DNA from: a virus
Lineage: Duplodnaviria > Heunggongvirae > Uroviricota > Caudoviricetes
DNA: 43,696 nt
Virus record (IMG/VR): IMGVR_UViG_2870490042_000005
Strand: one strand, 5' to 3'
The notes beneath the pieces were generated by a model. The model had not been told where the DNA came from. It saw nothing but the letters and a program-made list of their open reading frames with translations, and did not search any database. Below, piece by piece: positions 1 to 9,927 of this stretch (positions are counted from its first letter, which is position 1; every line of letters begins with the position of its first letter). The translations under genes were made by a program, and so were the position numbers.

Positions 1-20
1 TGCAATTAATAAAATGATTA

Positions 21-48
21 TAGCGGCCTTACATTAGTAAGGCCGCTA
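21..48. terminator. Perfect hairpin (agcggcctta / taaggccgct) in ORF-free leader at left edge of window
   Basis: Inverted repeat read directly from sequence; weak T-run only on minus strand; function not established. Confidence 0.3.
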
Positions 49-252
49 CTCACTATTAAATCCTTTAATTTGCAACAAGAACAGCAGTGTCAGCCCTAGG
101 TTTCGGACTTTGTACCGCTTATCTTGTCTTCAAAATCAGCTCGCATCCTGCACAGTTCAGCGCATTACGTTGTAGATCTGTGTTCTGGTCATTTGTTGAT
201 ACGCGAACATAGCCAATAAGCATGATAGCTCCTCCTGACAAAAACAGGAACG

Positions 253-759
253 ATGCCATTTGCGCGCTATTTCTGCATTTTCATAAACGTTGGTTTGGGC
301 GAAACGATAAATAAAGCCTCCGGAGCTATGCAGAAATCGGCTAATGGAGCTGATATTTCTGATGTATCAGCCTTCCGAAATGCGCTCCAGTTAGGGACCG
401 CCGCAACACGAGATGTTGGAGCAGATAATGCCTCGAAGTTACTGGGTTTAGACAGCTTCAGGTCAATGATGTCAGGGAATGGCTACATCTACATTCCATG
501 CATTGCGACGACAGGAAACCCGGTGAAACTTATGTTGCAGTGGGGAATGGTGGCAACACAAAAGGGAGCTGATGCTGGATATGCCTTACCATTTGCTTTT
601 CCCTATGCAGGCTTATTTGCGACCGGAAACCGTGGAACATCTGGCTACAATGCCGCGATGAATGTGCGTATTGCCAGCAGAACGCATATCAGTATTCAGA
701 ACTGGTCGCCATCCGGAGAGGGCACCGAAGATTGTTGTTTTATCGCGCTGGGGTATTAA
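253..759 (+). CDS. Orphan alternative side-tail-fibre C-terminal segment, inverted relative to stf
   Basis: Shares LQLG-x-AA-x-RDVG motif and C-terminal ...IALGY ending with the stf distal end (…EAIGY); frame closed by stop at 226..228 so no long upstream ORF; first ~17 aa look non-native. Confidence 0.5.
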   Translation: MPFARYFCIFINVGLGETINKASGAMQKSANGADISDVSAFRNALQLGTAATRDVGADNASKLLGLDSFRSMMSGNGYIYIPCIATTGNPVKLMLQWGMVATQKGADAGYALPFAFPYAGLFATGNRGTSGYNAAMNVRIASRTHISIQNWSPSGEGTEDCCFIALGY

Positions 760-761
760 GA

Positions 762-1172
762 ATGAATAAATTTTATAAAGGCTCTTTCTATCCGAAAGCA
801 CTAAAAGAGGTATATATCAGCGCCGGTTCATGGCCTGAAAATGGCGTTGATGTTGATGATGAAACAATGGCAATTTACACAGGCGTAGCGCCACAAGGCA
901 AAACGCTGGGGGCTGATAAAAATGGTAATCCTGCGTGGATTGATATCCCGCCACTCTCCGCTGAACAACAGATTATTCAGGCTGAACAGAAAAGAACGGT
1001 ATTGCGTTCTATGGCTGATAAGGAAATAGCCTGGAGACAGGATGCTTTTGATGCGGAAATCGCGACGGCAGAAGAAACCGCCGCGTTATCTGAATGGAAA
1101 AAATACCGGGTCTTGCTGATGCGCGTTGATACAGCAAAACCCGTATGGCCTGTCAATCCGCAGGATATTTAA
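762..1172 (+). CDS. tfa: Tail fibre assembly protein (Tfa family)
   Basis: C-terminus EIATAEETAALSEWKKYRVLLMRVDT resembles lambda Tfa C-terminal conserved region; ATG at 762 immediately after the fibre-tip stop. Confidence 0.7.
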   Translation: MNKFYKGSFYPKALKEVYISAGSWPENGVDVDDETMAIYTGVAPQGKTLGADKNGNPAWIDIPPLSAEQQIIQAEQKRTVLRSMADKEIAWRQDAFDAEIATAEETAALSEWKKYRVLLMRVDTAKPVWPVNPQDI

Positions 1173-1386
1173 CGGGGGCGTTGTAGGTGGTGACATATTC
1201 AAGCAGTTCTGTTGGATATGTCACCGTTGCTGCATCTCGCTCTACGTTAAATGTATCCGCTCCCCAGATAACACACTCCCTCAAAAATGCCTCCACCTCT
1301 GGCGAGACTTCAACCGCATCATCAGGTCGCTCTTGTTCAGAAACATAAAAACCAACGGTCGTTGGGCTGAAATACATATTCTCCAT
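1153..1386 (-). CDS. Tail fibre assembly protein, truncated N-terminal fragment (77 aa)
   Basis: ATG 5 nt after stf stop (1389..1391); converges on and overlaps the 3' end of the plus-strand tfa; much shorter than typical Tfa (~190 aa). Confidence 0.4.
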   Translation of the reverse strand: MENMYFSPTTVGFYVSEQERPDDAVEVSPEVEAFLRECVIWGADTFNVERDAATVTYPTELLEYVTTYNAPVKYPAD

Positions 1387-1388
1387 AT

Positions 1389-1624
1389 TTAGTATCCTAT
1401 TGCTTCAAAATGCAAAGTCGGAATTTCGCCGAGATTGGGTGTCGTATACGACACAGTGAATCGCGTTCTTGATACGTCAGTGCCAGAATCAGTATCGCGA
1501 TGCGTTGCCAGTGATTTCCCAGCCATTGATGACTGGGTCGAAAAGCTGTAACTCGCTAGTGTTGCCAGCGTTGCTATTTGTGCATTTGGGAATTGTCTGG
1601 GGAAATTAACCCTGTAGTAATGGG
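1389..1624 (-). pseudogene. stf: Distal 3' part of stf, separated from the rest of the gene by IS629
   Basis: Removing IS plus one copy of GGG restores an open frame continuing …GGVLYYT-HYYRVNFPRQ… to stop TAA at 1389..1391, ending …HFEAIGY. Confidence 0.7.
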
Positions 1625-1666
1625 TGAACCGCCCCGGGTTTCCTGGAGAGTGTTTTATCTGTGAAC

Positions 1667-2557
1667 TCAGGCTGCCAGATCATCGTTTCCGATGGAAGCA
1701 TAATAAGCTTTTTCTGCTTCTGCCGGAGGAGTATGGCCCAGCCTTTCCAGCAATCGTCGATTGTTATACCAGTCCACCCACGTGAGTGTGGCCAGTTCCA
1801 CTTCTGCACGGTTTTTCCAGCTCTTACGGTGTATTACCTCCGCTTTGTAAAGACCATTGATGCTCTCCGCCATCGCGTTGTCATACGAGTCGCCTGTACT
1901 TCCTGTTGATGCCAGTAATCCGGCTTCCTTAAGCCGCTGTGTGTAGGCCAGCGATACATACTGAGAACCTTTATCACTGTGATGGACCGTGCCGGACGGT
2001 CGACGGGCCCATAACGCCTGCTCCAGTGCATCCAGCACGAATGTCGTTTCCATGGACGATGAGACCCGCCACCCCACGATGTATCCGGCAAACACATCAA
2101 TGATGAACGCCACATAGACGAAGCCCCGCCATGTGCTGACGTAAGTAAAATCAGCCACCCACAGCTGGTCAGGTCGTTCTGCCACGAACTGACGGTTTAC
2201 GCGGTCGCCTGCGGCAACGGCTTTCCGGCTGATGGTCGTACGGACCTTTTTACCCCGGAGAACACCGGCAAGTCCCATAACCGCCATGAGACGTGCCACA
2301 GTGCATCTGGCCACTCTGATACCTTCCCGTAACAACTGACGCCAGACTTTACGCACACCGTATACCTTGTGATTTTCATCGTATACGCGCTGTATCTCTT
2401 TCTTCAGCCAGTCATCGCGCTGCGCACGGGCACTGCGTTTATCCGGATGATGTCGCTGTTGCTGACAGTGGTAATACGTTGACGGGGCAATATGCAGTTC
2501 GCTGCATAGCGGTCCGACCCCGTACTGCTCACGCAGCTTATCCAGCAGTGGCATCAT
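1667..2557 (-). CDS. IS3-family transposase OrfB (DDE integrase domain)
   Basis: 296-aa ORF with IS3-family OrfB-like sequence (…WVADFTYV…HSDKGSQY…); overlaps orfA end as expected for -1 frameshift fusion. Confidence 0.9.
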
Positions 2558-2880
2558 TTTTTCCAGAGGCGGTCGAACTCCGCCTTCGCAAAATAAGCGG
2601 AAGCCTGGCGAAGGATATCGTTACTGCGGCGCAGTTCACGATTTTCACGTTCCAGCTCTTTCAGACGCTGACGTTCAGCGGTGGTGAGCCCTCCATCACC
2701 GCCCCCGGTATCCCGCTCATGCTGGCGAACCCAGACACGCAGAGTCTCCGGCGTACAGCCAATCTTTGGAGCAATGGAACAAATTGTCGCCCATTGTGAG
2801 TCATATTCGCTCTGACTTTCCAGAACCATACGGACTGCCCGTTGACGGACTTCGGGGGAAAAACGAGTATTTTTAGTCAT
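2554..2880 (-). CDS. IS3-family transposase OrfA (HTH)
   Basis: 108-aa [22 protein letters not shown]… matching IS629/IS1203-type OrfA from memory. Confidence 0.9.
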
Positions 2881-2934
2881 CCTGTTTACCTCTTTCTCAG
2901 GAAGTTTAGTCTCCAGGATTCCCGGGGCGGTTCA

Positions 2935-5695
2935 GGGTGTAGTACAGCACTCCACCAAGAGTAATTGCGTTGAAATTACCAACAGGCGTCAGTGTCACAG
3001 TACCAACCTGTCGAATCATACCATTTGGGAGAATATCCCAGGCAGTTTGTCCGTTTCGCGACATACCAAATGCGGACATGTCCGGGAGTTGATTATTACC
3101 GGTTCCGACATCCCGTTTTGCCGCTTCTCCCAATTGAAGGTATGCGAGAAGACCAGCTACATCCTTTCCACTCAAATTAGTCAGCGTATTGTCCAGCGGT
3201 TGTTTGCCCGCCAGTGCGCTCTGTACTTCGCTTTTGCTGTAGGCATCCAGATCTTTAGGCGTAAGCGTAATATCCTTCGTGCCGTCAAACGGAACGCCGT
3301 TGATATTCCGTGCAGTCTGTAGTTTTGTGGCAGTTGCAGCATTACCAGTGGTGTTCTGATTACCCGTAGTGTTTACACCTGGAAGGTTAATATTTGCAGA
3401 ACCGTCGAAAACAACTCCACCGATAGATCTTGCCGTCTGCAATTTCGTGGCTGTACTTGCATTACCATTCAATGAACCAGTTAATCCACCTGTAACAGAC
3501 AACGGACCTGAAACTGTTCCTCCGGTTGTTGGCAGTGCTCCAATATCTAACGGCGTCGGTTTCTGATGTGTGCTATACATCGTATAAACAACACCATAGG
3601 TAACGCTGGAAGGCTTACTCGCTGAATATGTTGGCGAGGTATAAACAGAAACTGACGCATTTGCAGTACAATCCCAATGGATATTTACACTCGTCGCATA
3701 ATTGCCAATCTCAACGTAAATATCATATGTATCGCCGGATGTGTTGATCCAGGCGAAATTCGTTAATCCGACGGCTGTACGCTTCCACAAAGCCCCGGTA
3801 ATTCCTTTGGGGTTTCCATTGCCTGCTCGTAGAACCAGTTCTGAAATGCCTGCCTGATGTGGGGAACCGACGTTGTAACCAGCGCCACCAATCAATGCGA
3901 TGTAAACGATGGAACTCGCCTGTGGCATGGTTACCGTTGCTAATTTGAACCAACCAGCACCACCGCTGAATGACATTGTTGTTGAGTTAAGCGTACCAAT
4001 ATCTTTCGGCGTCAGTGTTATATCCGCTGAAAGCGCCTTACCATTCACCTTACGGGCAGAAGGTACCCGACCATTCGCATTATCATTAGCTGCTTTCACT
4101 GCTTTCGGTGTCGCGGCAAGCGTTTCAGATGCGCTGTTGGTTGCACTACTGAGCTGGACAATTCCTTTTTGTGCTGTCGTAGCGTCCTGTGCGGTGTATT
4201 TCCCGTTAGCCAGGTCATACGCGGCCTTAACGGCTTTTGGCGTTGCCGCCTGTGACTCGGAAGTGCTGTTGGTCGCACTGCTGAGCTGTACTACCCCCTT
4301 TTTCGTCGTGCTCGCATCCTCAAGCGCCACAGCGGATGCAATATCCTCTGCCCGTTTTGCTGCTGTCTCGGCGCGCGTTGCCGCGGATTCCGCCGTACTT
4401 TTGCTCTGAGCTGCCGCCGTCGCACTGCCAGCTGCCTCTGTCGCCTTCGTGGATGCCGTCGTGGCGCTGCCCTTCGCTGCTGACGCTTGTCTGGTCGCCT
4501 CATCTTTTGAAGCAGACGCCGATGATGCCGATGACGCCGCCGAACTGGCGGACGATGCGGCAGCCGTTTTTGAGGATTCTGCACGGGTTTCCGACGCTTT
4601 CGCGTTCGTTTCGGATGTCTTCGCTGCGGAAGCTGACCTCGCTGCTGCGCTGGCCTGTTCAGTGGCTTCGCCAGCCTTCGTTGTGGCTGTTGAAGCAGAC
4701 GATGCGGCACTTTCTGCCGACTTTCCGGCAGCGGTGGCACTGGCTGAGGCCTGCCCGGCACTTGTTGATGCGGCACTGGCAGATGATGCAGCCGCTGTTT
4801 TTGAGCCTGCCGCAGCTGAGGCACTCTGTCCCGCTGCCGTTTCAGAAGACCTGGCGTTCGTCTCGGACGTTTTTGCCGCCTTCGCGGAATTTCCTGCCGC
4901 CGTTGCCGAGGAAGCGGCACTACTGGCGCTTGATGATGCGTTCGTTTCTGATGATTTCGCTGCCTCTTTTGAGGCCGCCGCATCCCGGGCTGAGGTGGCA
5001 GCTTCTGACGCCTTTGTGGTCGCTGCGGATGCAGAAGTGGCTGCAGATTTTTGTGACGCTGCCGCATTCGTTTCTGACGTTTTCGCCGCACCGGCACTGG
5101 TAGCTGCCGCGCTTTTTGAGGACTCTGCAGCGGCAGCACTTTTTGAGGCTTCAGTGGCCTTTGTTGATGCCGTTCCTGCGCTGGAAGACGCTGACTGAGC
5201 CGACGTCGCGGCCTGCCCGGCTGATGTGCTGGCTGCGCGTGCTGAGCCTGCAGCATCAGTCGCATGGGTTGCCGCCTCACGGGCTGATGTGCTGGCATCA
5301 CTGGCTGACTTCTTCGCGGCTGCCGTGTTCTGTGCCACCACGGACGCGTTACGCGCCACCTCTTCCACCATCAGCTCAAAACGGCGCAGTGCCTCCGGAC
5401 GGGCATCATCCTCCGTCATGGCACCGAGAAAATCATTCAGCGTACCGGGTCGGGAATCTTCATACACGGTGATGGTCCCGGCATGTGACGGCGGGAATCC
5501 TTCCACCAACAGAATAACGCTGTACTGACCGTACTCAACGTCCATGCTGTAACGCCCGGCTTCATCCGGATTTTCAGATGCCAGCGTGTTCACCACCACC
5601 GTGGTACTGTTACGTTTTGCTTTCAGCTGGATTGTGCAGTTCTGTACCGGTTTTCCTGTGCCGTCTTTCAGTACACCTGAAATTTTTACTGCCAT
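2935..5695 (-). pseudogene. stf: Side tail fibre protein Stf, proximal part, interrupted at 3' end by IS629
   Basis: Starts MAVKISGVLKDGTGKPVQNCTIQLKA (ATG at 5695; ORF track start is an upstream GTG); long Ala/Ser-rich repeat region; ORF runs into the IS end giving an artificial C-terminus …LNRPGNPGD. Confidence 0.85.
4050..4310 (-). repeat. Tandem ~117-bp (39-aa) repeat inside stf
   Basis: Protein repeats KGVVQLSSATNSTSESQAATPKAVKAAYDLANG / KGIVQLSSATNSASETLAATPKAVKAANDNANG; coordinates approximate. Confidence 0.5.
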
Positions 5696-5703
5696 ATTCA
5701 CCC

Positions 5704-5733
5704 CACAAAAAAGCCCGCCTGAAACGGCGGGCT
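5704..5733 (-). terminator. Rho-independent terminator between lom and stf
   Basis: Stem agcccgcc/ggcgggct with run of six T on the minus strand. Confidence 0.6.
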
Positions 5734-5759
5734 GTCATAACACTGTGTTACCTGGCTAA

Positions 5760-6359
5760 TCAGAATTTATAACCGACACCCACGATGAAACCGTCAGTGC
5801 GCCAGTCGCCACTGCCGGAACCTTCATAAGCGACATCAATGGCCACGGACTCGGTCGGGTTAAACTGCACGCCAGCCCCCCACGCCAGAGACGTGTTGCT
5901 GTGGCGACCGTCATCACTTCCGGTCAGCACATCGTGCGTTTTCCCCTTATTGTCAGTTACGCGGATATAATCCCCGGAGAAAGTCGACACACGGCTGTAA
6001 GCTACACCCGCCATCGCATACGCGCTGAACCATTCATTCACGCGCACAGACGGCCCCGCCATTACGCTGAACCAGCGGTTACGAACGGAATCTTCATGCC
6101 AGCGGGTATCGCTGTAACGGGTCAGCTGGCGATTCTTGTCTCCTGCATAGCTGAATGACGTCACCAGCCCCAGTGTGTCCGTAAACTCATAACGGTATTT
6201 CACGTTAATCCCGTTCAGATCATCACTGCCGGGGACGTTCGTCGAGGCATGAAGATACCCCGCGCTCAGCGTGGACTGATGTTCAGACGCCCATGCAGGC
6301 GCACCGGATACGGCCAGACAAATGGCTGCGGACAAAATTGCTGCACAAACTTTACGCAT
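5760..6359 (-). CDS. lom: Outer membrane protein Lom (Ail/PagC/Lom family)
   Basis: 199 aa with signal peptide; matches lambda Lom from memory; ends …VGVGYKF. Confidence 0.9.
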   Translation of the reverse strand: MRKVCAAILSAAICLAVSGAPAWASEHQSTLSAGYLHASTNVPGSDDLNGINVKYRYEFTDTLGLVTSFSYAGDKNRQLTRYSDTRWHEDSVRNRWFSVMAGPSVRVNEWFSAYAMAGVAYSRVSTFSGDYIRVTDNKGKTHDVLTGSDDGRHSNTSLAWGAGVQFNPTESVAIDVAYEGSGSGDWRTDGFIVGVGYKF

Positions 6360-6381
6360 AATTACCTCTCGCTTTTCTGCA

Positions 6382-6407
6382 ATAAAAAAGGCGTCATTCC
6401 TGACGCC
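6382..6407 (-). terminator. Rho-independent terminator downstream of J
   Basis: Stem ggcgtca/tgacgcc followed by T-run on minus strand. Confidence 0.5.
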
Positions 6408-6429
6408 CTTTATTGGGGTTATAAATATT

Positions 6430-9400
6430 TCAACGAATACTGATGCCGGAAGCGGCTTTTTTGGTCACAATCACCGTACAGTCGGTGATATTGCCTGCCC
6501 CCTGATTGCCTTTCTGGAAAATCTTAAACTCCAGAGTGACGCTTCCCCTGCCACTCGGCATATCAATAACTGCACTGTAACTACCGGGAATGGCCCCTTT
6601 AGTTTCTCTGGATGCGATTAATACGCCGTTTTTGCGAACTTCAAAACCATAACCCGTGTATCTTGTGCCTCCTGGGTTATTTCCGCTCCCCGGATCGTCA
6701 TACGCTATACCGTTAAAAATAATGGGCGGAATAATAATCTGGCGGTCAAAGTTATGATCATCGCTGATGGTGACTGTAACCGTACCGTTTGGTGTTTCCG
6801 TGTTACCCCACGTACCGACTTTTTTCGGGAAGGCTTTTGATACAGCTTTAACGAAATCTCCTCTGACCTGGGTCGCCTCCAGCATGCCCTTAATCGTACA
6901 GTTCTGGTTAATCGTGACATTGTTGAGCGTTCCTGAGTTCGCATTCACACTGCCACTGATATCCGCATTTTTCGCCGTCAGTCTCCCGTCTGATGTCAGG
7001 GAAAATGCCGGAGGATTACCGCCGCTGGTAATGGTGGGGGCCGTCAGGCGTTTCAGGAACACTTCATTCATGAATATCTGATCACCCTGACCAACAAACA
7101 TCGGCTTTGTGTTGCCATTCGCAGGATTAATCATCGCAATCCTGTCTGCCGCCAGCAGCACCTGACTCTGCATTCCTGCTGGCGTATTCTCAATACCGGC
7201 ACCGATACCCGCAATATAAAGGCGTCCGTCCTGCATCTGCTGCAGTTTCACGGCCCACATGCTGTTCAGGTTATTATTTGTATCAACCTGAACCTTCTGT
7301 ATCTGCTGGATCGCTGCACTCTGGTCTTCCAGTTTCTTATTGACGGTCTGTGTGATTTCATTGCTGACATCCGTAATGGATGTCCTGATTTCAGCCAGGT
7401 CAGGCGCAAGCTGGCCGTTATCAATCTGCGTCCACAGCTCCTGAGCCAGATGGGTTTTCCCTATCTCGCCTTTGAAAAAATCCAGATAGCCGGATGCGTC
7501 ATCACTCGGCTGACCAACAGCCTCCACGAATGCCGATTTGCCAACGGTGTTCACACTGCGGATATAAAAGTAATAATCATGGCCCGGTTTGATATTGATA
7601 CTGGCGGCTATCCAGTACAGCGCCGTGCCAAGATAGCGTGCTGTGGTTTCAACCTGCCTGATATCCGCAATCCGCTTTTCCGAGAACCAGAACTCAAACT
7701 GTACCGTCGGATCATAAACCGCAAGATGCGGCGTGGCGGTTATCTGAAAATAGCCCGGCGTCAGCTCAATCCGCGACGGCGCTGCCGGTGCGGCAATCCG
7801 GAACGATACCGACGCCGGATCGCCCTGCTGCCCCCACGCATTTACTGCCCGGACTGTCAGCCTGTAGTTCCCCAGCGCCAGTTGTGTGAAGCGGTAAGTG
7901 GTTTCCGTCGTCCGGGCCGTGCTGACCAGCCGCTCACTGCCGTCATCCGCTGCCACGGTCAGGCGAAGCATAAAGCTCACCCCCTTCACCACCTTCGGCG
8001 TGTCCCAGCGCGCCAGCACCTGATATTCCCCGCTGTCTGCGGTGACTTCGGCAGTCAGGTGCTGCACCGCTGGCGGCGTGACACCATTCACCGTGCCACT
8101 CTGTTCGCCGTCAAAGTGCGCCCCGTTATCCACGATGGCCTCTTTTTCCGGCACATGCTGCACGGCGGTGATGGCATACATGCCGTCGTCGTTTTCACGG
8201 ATACTCACACAGCGGAATAGTCGCTGGCGCAGCGTCGGCAGCTTCAGCCCCCATACGCTGTATTCAGCAACACCGTCAGGAACACGGCTCACTTTTACCT
8301 TCACGCCGTCGGTGACGGACTGGACCTCCACGCTGACCGGATTGCCACTTCCGTCAACCAGGCTTATCAGCGTGGTACCGGAGGATGGCAGCGTGATTTC
8401 ACGGTCGAGCGTCAGCGTCCGGGTCTGGCTGTTCACCGCCAGCACGCGCCCGCCGATGCTGATCCCCGCATAGTCATCATCGCAGATTTCAATAACATCA
8501 CCCGGCACATGGCGAAGCCCTTCGGCACCCACGCTGAAATCCACGGTCTGCGTTTCCAGCAGTTCTGTTTTAATCAGCCACAGCCCGGCGCGGTGTGCCT
8601 GCCCCCGGCTGGTACAGCCAAAGGCATCCATCTTCGTGACATTACGACCGTAACGGGCAATGGCCTGCGTATCTTCAACAAGCTCTGTTGCCGTCTCCCA
8701 GCCGTTGTCCGGGTCAATCCAGTTCACCTCAACGGCATTATGGCGGTCCTTCAGGGCGCTGAAGCTGTAGCGGAACGGCGCGCCATCATCCGGCATCACC
8801 ACATTACTGCGGTTATAGGTCCACACCTTATCCGACGGTCGGTCCTGCACGAACGTCAGCGTCTGCCCGTTCCATACCGGCATACAGCGCATCGCCGAGC
8901 AGAAATCACTGAGCACATCCCACGCCTTGCGCTGTGTGGTCAGGTACGCATTACAGGTGATGCGCGGCTCCGTGCTGCCAAAGCCGTCCGGCACTGACTG
9001 GTCGCAGTACTGGCCGATGACATACAGCGCCCATTTGTCCACATCCGCCGCACCAAGACGTTTTCCCATGCCGTAGCGCGGGTGGGTCAGCATATCCCAC
9101 AGACACCAGGCCATGTTGTTGCTGTATGCCGGTTTTAACGTTCCGTCCCAGATACCGCTGTATTGCCGCGTCTGCGGGTTATAGTTCGACGGCACCTGCA
9201 GAATGCGCCCGCGAAGATGATAATTACGACTCACCTGCTGGCTGCCGAACTGCTCCGAGTCCACCTGTACGCCGACCAGTGCCGTGTTCGGGTAGCACTG
9301 TTTCACATCGATGATTTCGGTGTATGACGACCAGAGCGTTTTGTTCTGCAGCTGGTCTGTGGTGCTGTCCGGCGTCATCCTGCGCATCCGGATGTTGAAC

Positions 9401-9927
9401 GGGCGCGGCGGCAGATTATCCACCACTACCGAGGCCAGATACTGCGAGGTGGTTTTGCCCTTAATGGTGATGTCTTTTTCCGTCACCCAGCCACCGTTAC
9501 GTTGTATCTGAACCAGCAGGCGAACTTCCGACGGATTCCTGTCCCCCTTTGAGGTGGTTTCCACCAGTGCCTGCACACCGAAGGTAAAGCGCAGACGGTC
9601 AATGTTTGCCGACGTGATGGTCCGGGTGATCGGCGTGTCATATTTCACTTCCGTACCCAGTACCGTCTCGGAACCTGATGATTCAAATCCCTCCGGCGGT
9701 GTCTGTTCCTGCTCACCTGCCCGGAACACCACCGTGACACCGGAGATATTGGTATTCCCCTCACTGTCCAGCACCGGTGTACTGTTCAGCAGCACGCTTT
9801 TTAATCCATCCACCGGACCTTCAACCGGCCCTTCGCTGATGGCATCGATCACACTCAGCAGCTGCGTGGACTTCAGGTTGTCCTTCGCTTCGCGCGGGGT
9901 ATGCCCCTTACTGCCGCCTTTACCCAT
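6430..9927 (-). CDS. J: Tail tip host-specificity protein J
   Basis: 1165 aa; N-terminus [24 protein letters not shown] and most of the body match lambda J; C-terminal ~150 aa appear divergent. Confidence 0.9.

Follow-up and report, generated by a model that had tools for sequence, protein, structure and literature searches.

A lambda-like prophage in a 43,696-nt stretch of DNA (IMG/VR record IMGVR_UViG_2870490042_000005, here called the window) carries a side tail fibre gene, stf, that is made up of a constant part and a variable tip, with the tip lying inside an invertible segment. The stf reading frame is interrupted in the window by an insertion sequence (IS) of the IS629 type, and it is very probable that this element has struck one arm of a fibre switch of the Gin/Pin/Cin type whose other arm is intact, leaving the orientation seen here defective. 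Because the broken part is one arm of a flip-flop switch with an intact counterpart, the loss of the Stf fibre is probably reversible. A first-pass annotation of the window had recognised the type of IS, the target duplication and the original reading frame, but had missed the invertible segment, together with the intact alternative tip and the Caudo_TAP chaperone gene on the plus strand.

In its present form, stf (2906..5695, minus strand) encodes 929 residues: 853 from the constant part, 67 from the variable tip currently joined to it (termed Sv) and 9 derived from the IS (LNRPGNPGD), with the stop codon inside the IS end. As first described, the fibre therefore ends in IS-derived residues; 920 native residues are kept and 77 are lost. 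The severed 3' part of the Sv arm (1389..1624, minus strand) comprises 77 codons and a stop, ends in HFEAIGY and holds most of a Gp53-like_C domain. Between the two parts lies a complete IS of the IS3 family at 1625..2934 (minus strand), with its transposase genes co-directional with stf, flanked by GGG on both sides (1622..1624 and 2935..2937), in agreement with the 1310-bp element, terminal repeats and 3-bp duplication originally reported for the 3' part of stf. The sequence TGAACCGCCCCGGG occurs once forward at 1625..1638 and once as its reverse complement at 2921..2934, which delimits the 1310 bp; the first 14 of 14 nucleotides of the ends are identical, 23 of the first 25 positions match and the termini are TG...CA. 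The orfA gene (2554..2880, minus strand; 108 aa) encodes an HTH_Tnp_1 domain (PF01527, E = 7e-13), and orfB (1667..2557, minus strand; 296 aa) encodes HTH_21 (PF13276) and the rve DDE core (PF00665, E = 8e-28), matching the IS3 family transposase model NF033516 of NCBIfam at 314.6 bits, above its cut-off. An ALIL pseudoknot with a TGGAAAAAATGA slippery region, an A-run at the orfA/orfB overlap, was found at 2483..2599 on the minus strand (Rfam RF01497, 120.2 bits against a gathering score of 50) and would serve the programmed -1 frameshift that fuses orfA and orfB. The target of the IS is partly palindromic (1612..1624 and 2935..2947; CTGTAGTAATGGG / GGGTGTAGTACAG) and encodes a tandem-tyrosine stretch, YYTHYY, of the fibre tip.

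The whole 1310 bp is 100% identical to many plasmid and chromosomal copies, including one in strain 164, and the exact OrfB sequence is on record, identical to CFT073 proteins in a cluster whose members are named IS629 OrfB. Identity is 96.0% to a copy annotated as IS629 in phage BP-4795 and 96.3% to a copy named IS1203 by PGAP. In a dog isolate with the IS at the identical site, a 795-nt orfA-proximal fragment that is 100% identical is named "IS3-like element IS629 family" by PGAP, and the other IS fragment, 99.6% identical, is named "IS3 family" only. In ISfinder, isoforms share at least 95% nucleotide identity with the reference. Judged by identity to annotated copies, "IS629-type" would seem a fair label for an isoform. 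The element shares with the IS629/IS1203/IS3411 group its 1310-bp length, TG...CA ends, -1 frameshift between orfA and orfB, ALIL pseudoknot and 3-bp duplication, whereas it differs from the IS629 copies of the O157:H7 type and of BP-4795 as a roughly 4% divergent isoform found mainly in CFT073-like chromosomes and many plasmids. In a dog urine isolate (NZ_CM148374; locus L009, 6305..9884), a group II intron with an ltrA reverse transcriptase/maturase lies inside the IS629 copy of the silent Sv arm: an intron in an IS in a fibre cassette in a prophage.

Deletion of 1625..2937 in silico produced a 997-aa ORF, running from the ATG at 5695 to the stop at 1389..1391 and ending in ...TLHFEAIGY, with no internal stop; the roughly 80 further codons expected upon removal of the IS and one GGG are exactly 77. 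IS-free alleles with a single GGG exist in related strains. In BDSF8-3, 32-4 and 3090, the IS-free junction was found at 100% identity over the full 6400-nt query (window 1..6400), aligned as 5087 bp, that is 6400 minus 1313, and WCHEC025985 carries an IS-free allele that matches over 5086 bp with a one-base gap. The locus of BDSF8-3 contains an uninterrupted 999-codon stf ORF, and the exact sequence of the restored 997-aa protein is on record. Given the IS-free alleles and the exact protein record, the reconstruction is not hypothetical. By exact look-up, the truncated 929-aa product was absent from a collection of about 15 billion proteins. Homologous uninterrupted fibres from phi458 (99.4% identity over the last 178 aa), phi456 (98.3%) and Klebsiella phage KP12 (73%) reach the same C-terminus as the restored protein. 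PGAP calls the IS-free, Sv-expressed stf of BDSF8-3 (locus L001, 5070..7382) a pseudogene "missing C-terminus" despite its uninterrupted ORF, which is probably an annotation artefact of comparison with a reference of the alternative tip type, S'v (described below).

The Stf N-terminus matches the phage_tail_N domain (PF08400) over residues 1-134 (E = 1e-71), and Phage_fiber_2 repeats (PF03406) are also present. The last 109 residues of the restored protein match Gp53-like_C (PF21882) at 29.3 bits, against a cut-off of 24.9. The cut made by the IS falls within this C-terminal domain and removes about 70% of it, so the product of the present orientation is truncated, as had been proposed. A sequence search with the restored fibre tip against solved structures gave chance-level matches only.

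To locate crossover sites, every 26-mer of the window was scored against a consensus of the hix/gix/cix type, and natural recombinants were used for confirmation. The best match, site A (TTTTCATAAACG TT GGTTTGGGCGAA, 278..303, core TT at 290..291), agrees with 16 of 18 specified consensus positions, and the second best, site B (3125..3150, the reverse complement being TTCTCGCATACC TT CAATTGGGAGAA, core at 3137..3138), lies inside stf; the two cores read TT and AA. A generic inverted-repeat search of the window did not reveal the sites, which are too short and degenerate for it. Measured from core dinucleotide to core dinucleotide, the invertible segment spans 290..3138. Site B coincides with the boundary between the constant part (853 aa) and the variable part of Stf, and the last 144 codons of the restored stf lie inside the segment. 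At the other end of the segment, on the plus strand, a 168-aa ORF (253..759) ending in FIALGY encodes the silent alternative tip, S'v, with its own Gp53-like_C domain (PF21882, E = 1.8e-8), of which 155 residues would be joined to Stf after inversion. This is followed by a canonical tail-fibre assembly gene of the S'v cassette (762..1172, plus strand; 136 aa; Caudo_TAP, PF02413, E = 2.4e-31; PHROG 188, E = 4e-42). Sv and a 77-aa ORF directly downstream of it (1153..1386, minus strand) stand tail to tail with S'v and the Caudo_TAP gene, the ORFs overlapping at 1153..1172.

When 290..3138 was flipped in silico, the resulting sequence had no mismatches to strain 164 (NZ_CP048367) over 6400 nt, with the IS included at the same site and in the same orientation relative to Sv. 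It encodes an intact 1008-aa Stf (853 constant and 155 S'v residues) that is identical to the annotated Stf of strain 164. The segment is likewise inverted in NDM6, where the annotation shows an intact stf of 1008 aa with the Caudo_TAP gene behind it; strain 164 has the same inversion plus the IS3-family element in the now-silent Sv arm, and S'v is fused to stf in both. Alignment with these two strains places the exchange points exactly at 290/291 and 3137/3138, on the cores, with all mismatches falling within the exchanged half-sites. Many genomes match the window at 100% identity through the following 24.6 kb, from J to the lysis region, yet are absent from the best matches to the stf region, and this is because the segment is inverted there, as seen in the two that were inspected (NDM6 and 164). 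The earlier conclusion that the side fibres are probably non-functional, much as in lambda PaPa, thus applies to this orientation and not as a fixed state, since flipped sister genomes with the same IS hold an intact 1008-aa stf.

Junction-specific queries against 5426 complete E. coli genomes were used to count the states of the locus. The state of the window, with the IS present and Sv joined to stf, was found in 0 of the 5426. The IS together with the flipped segment was found in nine records (164, EC29, NDM_11.16372, NDM_12_14482, 5270, 41EC2, LS992185 and two dog-isolate records that are apparently one isolate, given their identical length and coordinates), all of which share the orientation opposite to that of the window. 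At least eight chromosomes lack the IS and have Sv joined, and the flipped junction occurs at 99% identity or more in about 80 genomes. The same insertion is therefore found in both orientations, and at least one site-specific inversion must have followed the insertion, in a lineage that already carried the invertase stub described below. Parsimony from these counts makes it most likely that the IS entered a silent Sv cassette, where it would be neutral, and that a later flip in the lineage of the window moved the broken arm to the expression site. The initial description of an IS that splits stf is thus correct for the ORF as it stands in the window, but the element most likely entered a silent copy. 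Strain IH5 (NZ_CP168269; locus L010, 5305..5383) has since been rearranged: the terminal 79 bp of the IS are left at the same site, followed by pbp4b-murP-murQ, which suggests that an IS629-mediated chromosomal rearrangement or deletion removed the rest of that prophage end. The junction of the constant part and Sv was also found at 99.5-100% identity on many plasmids of 88-119 kb, which their size and the match to phi456 suggest are P1-like phage-plasmids. This identity also suggests that lambdoid prophages and plasmids of this kind have exchanged fibre cassettes recently; the plasmids would also be candidate sources of a Cin invertase.

Beside site A lies a stub of a serine invertase gene of the Pin/Gin family (102..223, minus strand; MLIGYVRVSTNDQNTDLQRNAL...), in which about 30 conserved N-terminal codons are followed by a frameshift and truncation. 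It is about 122 nt, or about 40 codons, in length, and PGAP describes it in identical relatives as [quoted passage not shown]. In relatives the stub adjoins a gene with a DUF262 domain (locus L001, 1111..3223; locus L011, 2524..4637), and the window begins just past this gene; the same pairing of stub and DUF262 gene also occurs beside tail genes of the baseplate type (J/gp47, gp46, V) in another prophage, in strain B1S11. It may be that a mobile module, the DUF262 gene, has taken the place of the 3' part of the invertase. Just beyond the stub, a GC-rich hairpin at 20..52 (tagcggccttac...gtaaggccgcta) resembles an intrinsic terminator that would separate the stub from the DUF262 gene upstream.

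Several other explanations of the locus were weighed. A fixed knock-out of stf by the IS, comparable to the frameshift of lambda PaPa, with the inverted tip and its Tfa gene as inert remnants and the orientation frozen by a dead invertase, would fit the frameshifted stub, the lack of any other serine recombinase in the window and the many IS-free relatives that have the stub only on their chromosome and mostly share one orientation. We regard it as unlikely, however, since the identical IS insertion occurs in the opposite orientation with zero other differences, which calls for a precise inversion after the insertion, when the stub was already present, and since both orientations are found among IS-free relatives with 100% identical flanks. 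The need for an inversion after the insertion would vanish if two independent IS629 insertions had hit the same GGG of Sv, one per orientation of the segment. In favour of such a target hot spot, the region around the insertion is partly palindromic, and IS3-family elements are to some degree selective in their targets. Against it, the two cases agree in position, in orientation relative to Sv, in the duplication and over the entire 1310-bp sequence, and the 5426 genomes contain no other IS629 insertion near this position in the cassette, so that coincidence of this kind appears extremely improbable. We give scarcely any credence, too, to the idea that the difference in orientation is an assembly artefact or the product of general homologous recombination. 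Assemblers can be misled by inverted repeats, and an assembly of a switching locus shows one orientation of a mixed population; here, however, the repeats are imperfect and no longer than 26 bp, which is too short either to confuse an assembler or for RecA-dependent exchange, the exchange point sits exactly on the 2-bp core of sites with the invertase consensus, and both orientations recur in dozens of independent complete assemblies.

The interpretation as an IS-damaged arm of a fibre switch is thus retained, with some points that weigh against it. There is no functional invertase in the 43.7-kb window and no serine-recombinase motif besides the stub, and the flip would therefore have to be catalysed in trans, by a related invertase of another prophage or of a P1-like plasmid. 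Members of this invertase family use 26-bp sites and a Fis-bound enhancer, which in Mu/Gin lies within the 5' part of the invertase gene (Kahmann 1985, as cited in PMC3798978); a crude Fis-motif scan of the stub found no paired sites at the canonical 48-bp spacing. By similarity counts, most IS-bearing chromosomes have three pin-like 5' regions, the stub and two more, and most IS-free flipped chromosomes have the stub only, a pattern consistent with additional invertases in the IS-bearing genomes, where the counts are of loci. The loss of fibre function is predicted from the loss of a domain, and the suggested order of events draws on parsimony applied to a few genomes that are not phylogenetically independent of one another. 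As a precedent for catalysis in trans, PinQ of the Qin prophage inverts the e14 segment, a case of a Pin-family invertase acting on the segment of another prophage (PMC12529663).

In the mechanism proposed, the constant part of stf (853 codons) leads into a variable tip within 290..3138, which holds two alternative tips in opposite orientation, Sv paired with the 77-aa ORF and S'v paired with the Caudo_TAP Tfa gene. An intact IS629-type element has transposed into Sv, duplicating GGG. In the orientation of the window, the IS-bearing Sv is joined to the constant part, so that the encoded fibre ends 9 codons into the IS, without its last 77 residues. Recombination at the 2-bp core of each 26-bp site would turn the segment round and join S'v instead, giving a complete 1008-aa Stf with its own Tfa; the flip would depend on a related invertase supplied in trans by another prophage or by a P1-like plasmid. 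Lambda loses its side-fibre (high-adsorption) phenotype through frameshifts that cluster in the last 20% of stf (PMC2762979). Together with the loss of the distal domain, this makes loss of fibre function likely here, and the fibre of the window orientation, and of this orientation only, is predicted to be defective, leaving the particle without working side fibres. Since gene J is intact, the prophage, like lambda PaPa, could still give rise to particles that adsorb, and J-mediated adsorption should be unaffected.

The exact breakpoints and identical flanks indicate that a segment without an invertase of its own was inverted recently. This inversion of a segment with a destroyed invertase implies cross-talk between mobile elements, as shown for PinQ and e14. 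Tentatively, and with our own expectation leaning somewhat the other way, the segment could be regarded as an orphan, its invertase reduced to a stub that retains the crossover site, which is flipped by invertases of co-resident prophages or P1-like plasmids; continued switching of this kind would turn side fibres ON and OFF at the hands of co-resident mobile elements, rather than alternate between two specificities. For annotation, a "pseudogenised" fibre gene beside an inverted tip and chaperone genes should be treated as a switch caught in one of its states rather than as dead. The point bears on the prediction of host range and adsorption for prophages of multidrug-resistant E. coli lineages, many of the relatives having names such as NDM3 to NDM6.

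The components of the locus are all of known kinds, with none new, and public genomes already hold this insertion in the opposite orientation; the sole mildly unusual point is the clear evidence of recent inversion in a segment that lacks an invertase. As in the G segment of Mu (Gin), the C segment of P1 (Cin) and the P segment of e14 (PinE), two fibre C-termini with their chaperone genes lie tail to tail between inverted 26-bp sites with a 2-bp core, one site is within the fibre gene at the constant/variable boundary, and the invertase gene stands beside the other. In contrast to these systems, the phage is lambda-like with a fibre of the Stf type, the invertase is a stub of about 40 codons, so that inversion could occur only in trans, and one arm is broken by an IS, so that switching would yield an intact fibre in one state and a defective one in the other, and not two host ranges. 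Two other phages share the Sv cassette: the P1-like phi456, and Klebsiella phage KP12, in which it is 73% identical and adjoins an intact invertase. With the stf of lambda PaPa, which carries a fixed 1-bp frameshift (Hendrix & Duda 1992, as cited in PMC2762979), the window shares a truncated lambda-type Stf downstream of J and lom, a predicted loss of side fibres and the retention of J-dependent adsorption, whereas the PaPa lesion is in a non-invertible gene and the IS here lies in an invertible arm, where inversion could bypass it or precise excision undo it. Lambdoid phages BP-4795 (IS629) and phi458 (IS1) also have an IS within their fibre genes or immediately behind them, at other insertion sites and with other elements; the IS1 of phi458 is in the S'v arm, with the Sv arm expressed. 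Phage phi458 (OP434518; locus L003, 3136..3833) is a close relative in which the IS1 interrupts an arm of the same segment, and only a partial invertase is annotated. It is recorded with the laboratory host MC1061, and phages with such IS insertions can therefore be viable. IS hits in these fibre cassettes appear to be recurrent. The PinQ-driven inversion of the e14 P segment, like the one proposed here, involves an invertase of one prophage flipping a fibre segment of another, but that inversion was shown experimentally and yields a chimeric protein with anti-phage activity (PMC12529663), whereas the flip described here is deduced from sequence comparison.

The minus-strand ORF that begins at 1386, directly after the restored stf stop, had initially been taken for tfa. 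This name could not be upheld: the 77-aa ORF has no match in Pfam or NCBIfam, with no hit to PF02413 even at E values up to 10, and only its residues 1-31 weakly match PHROG 188 (Tfa; E = 8e-5). In the orientation of the window, stf is thus followed by the 77-aa ORF and not by the Caudo_TAP gene, which lies on the other strand in the silent arm. Homologues of 77-80 aa with 59-97% identity are found in Citrobacter, Enterobacter, Phytobacter and other genera, and the ORF adjoins the same tip in phi456 and in KP12, where its identity is 49%. This conservation indicates that the 77-aa ORF is a real gene, and the possibility that it is a truncated remnant of a normal Tfa was rejected because the family keeps to 77-80 aa in different genera and phage types. 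An AF2 model of the protein has a pLDDT of 92, with no significant fold match among PDB structures. The family always stands directly after a Gp53-like_C tip of the HFEAIGY type, in lambda-like, P1-like and KP12 contexts (the last with tail genes of the baseplate type), and a chaperone role is suggested by this position. Tfa proteins bind the fibre through a variable N-terminal domain and trimerise through conserved C-terminal helices (PMC9608196); speculatively, the 77-aa protein may be a minimal chaperone of the N-terminal-domain type. One homologue of the family (P0117) has a C-terminal ...PDIDWPEKPTK extension that is reminiscent of the ends of Caudo_TAP proteins.

Upstream of stf on the minus strand are lom (5760..6359) and the tail-tip gene J (6430..9927), both intact according to the ORF list and named after PGAP annotations in identical relatives. 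The gene order J-lom-stf across this context (5760..9927), with stf downstream of both, is that of lambda.

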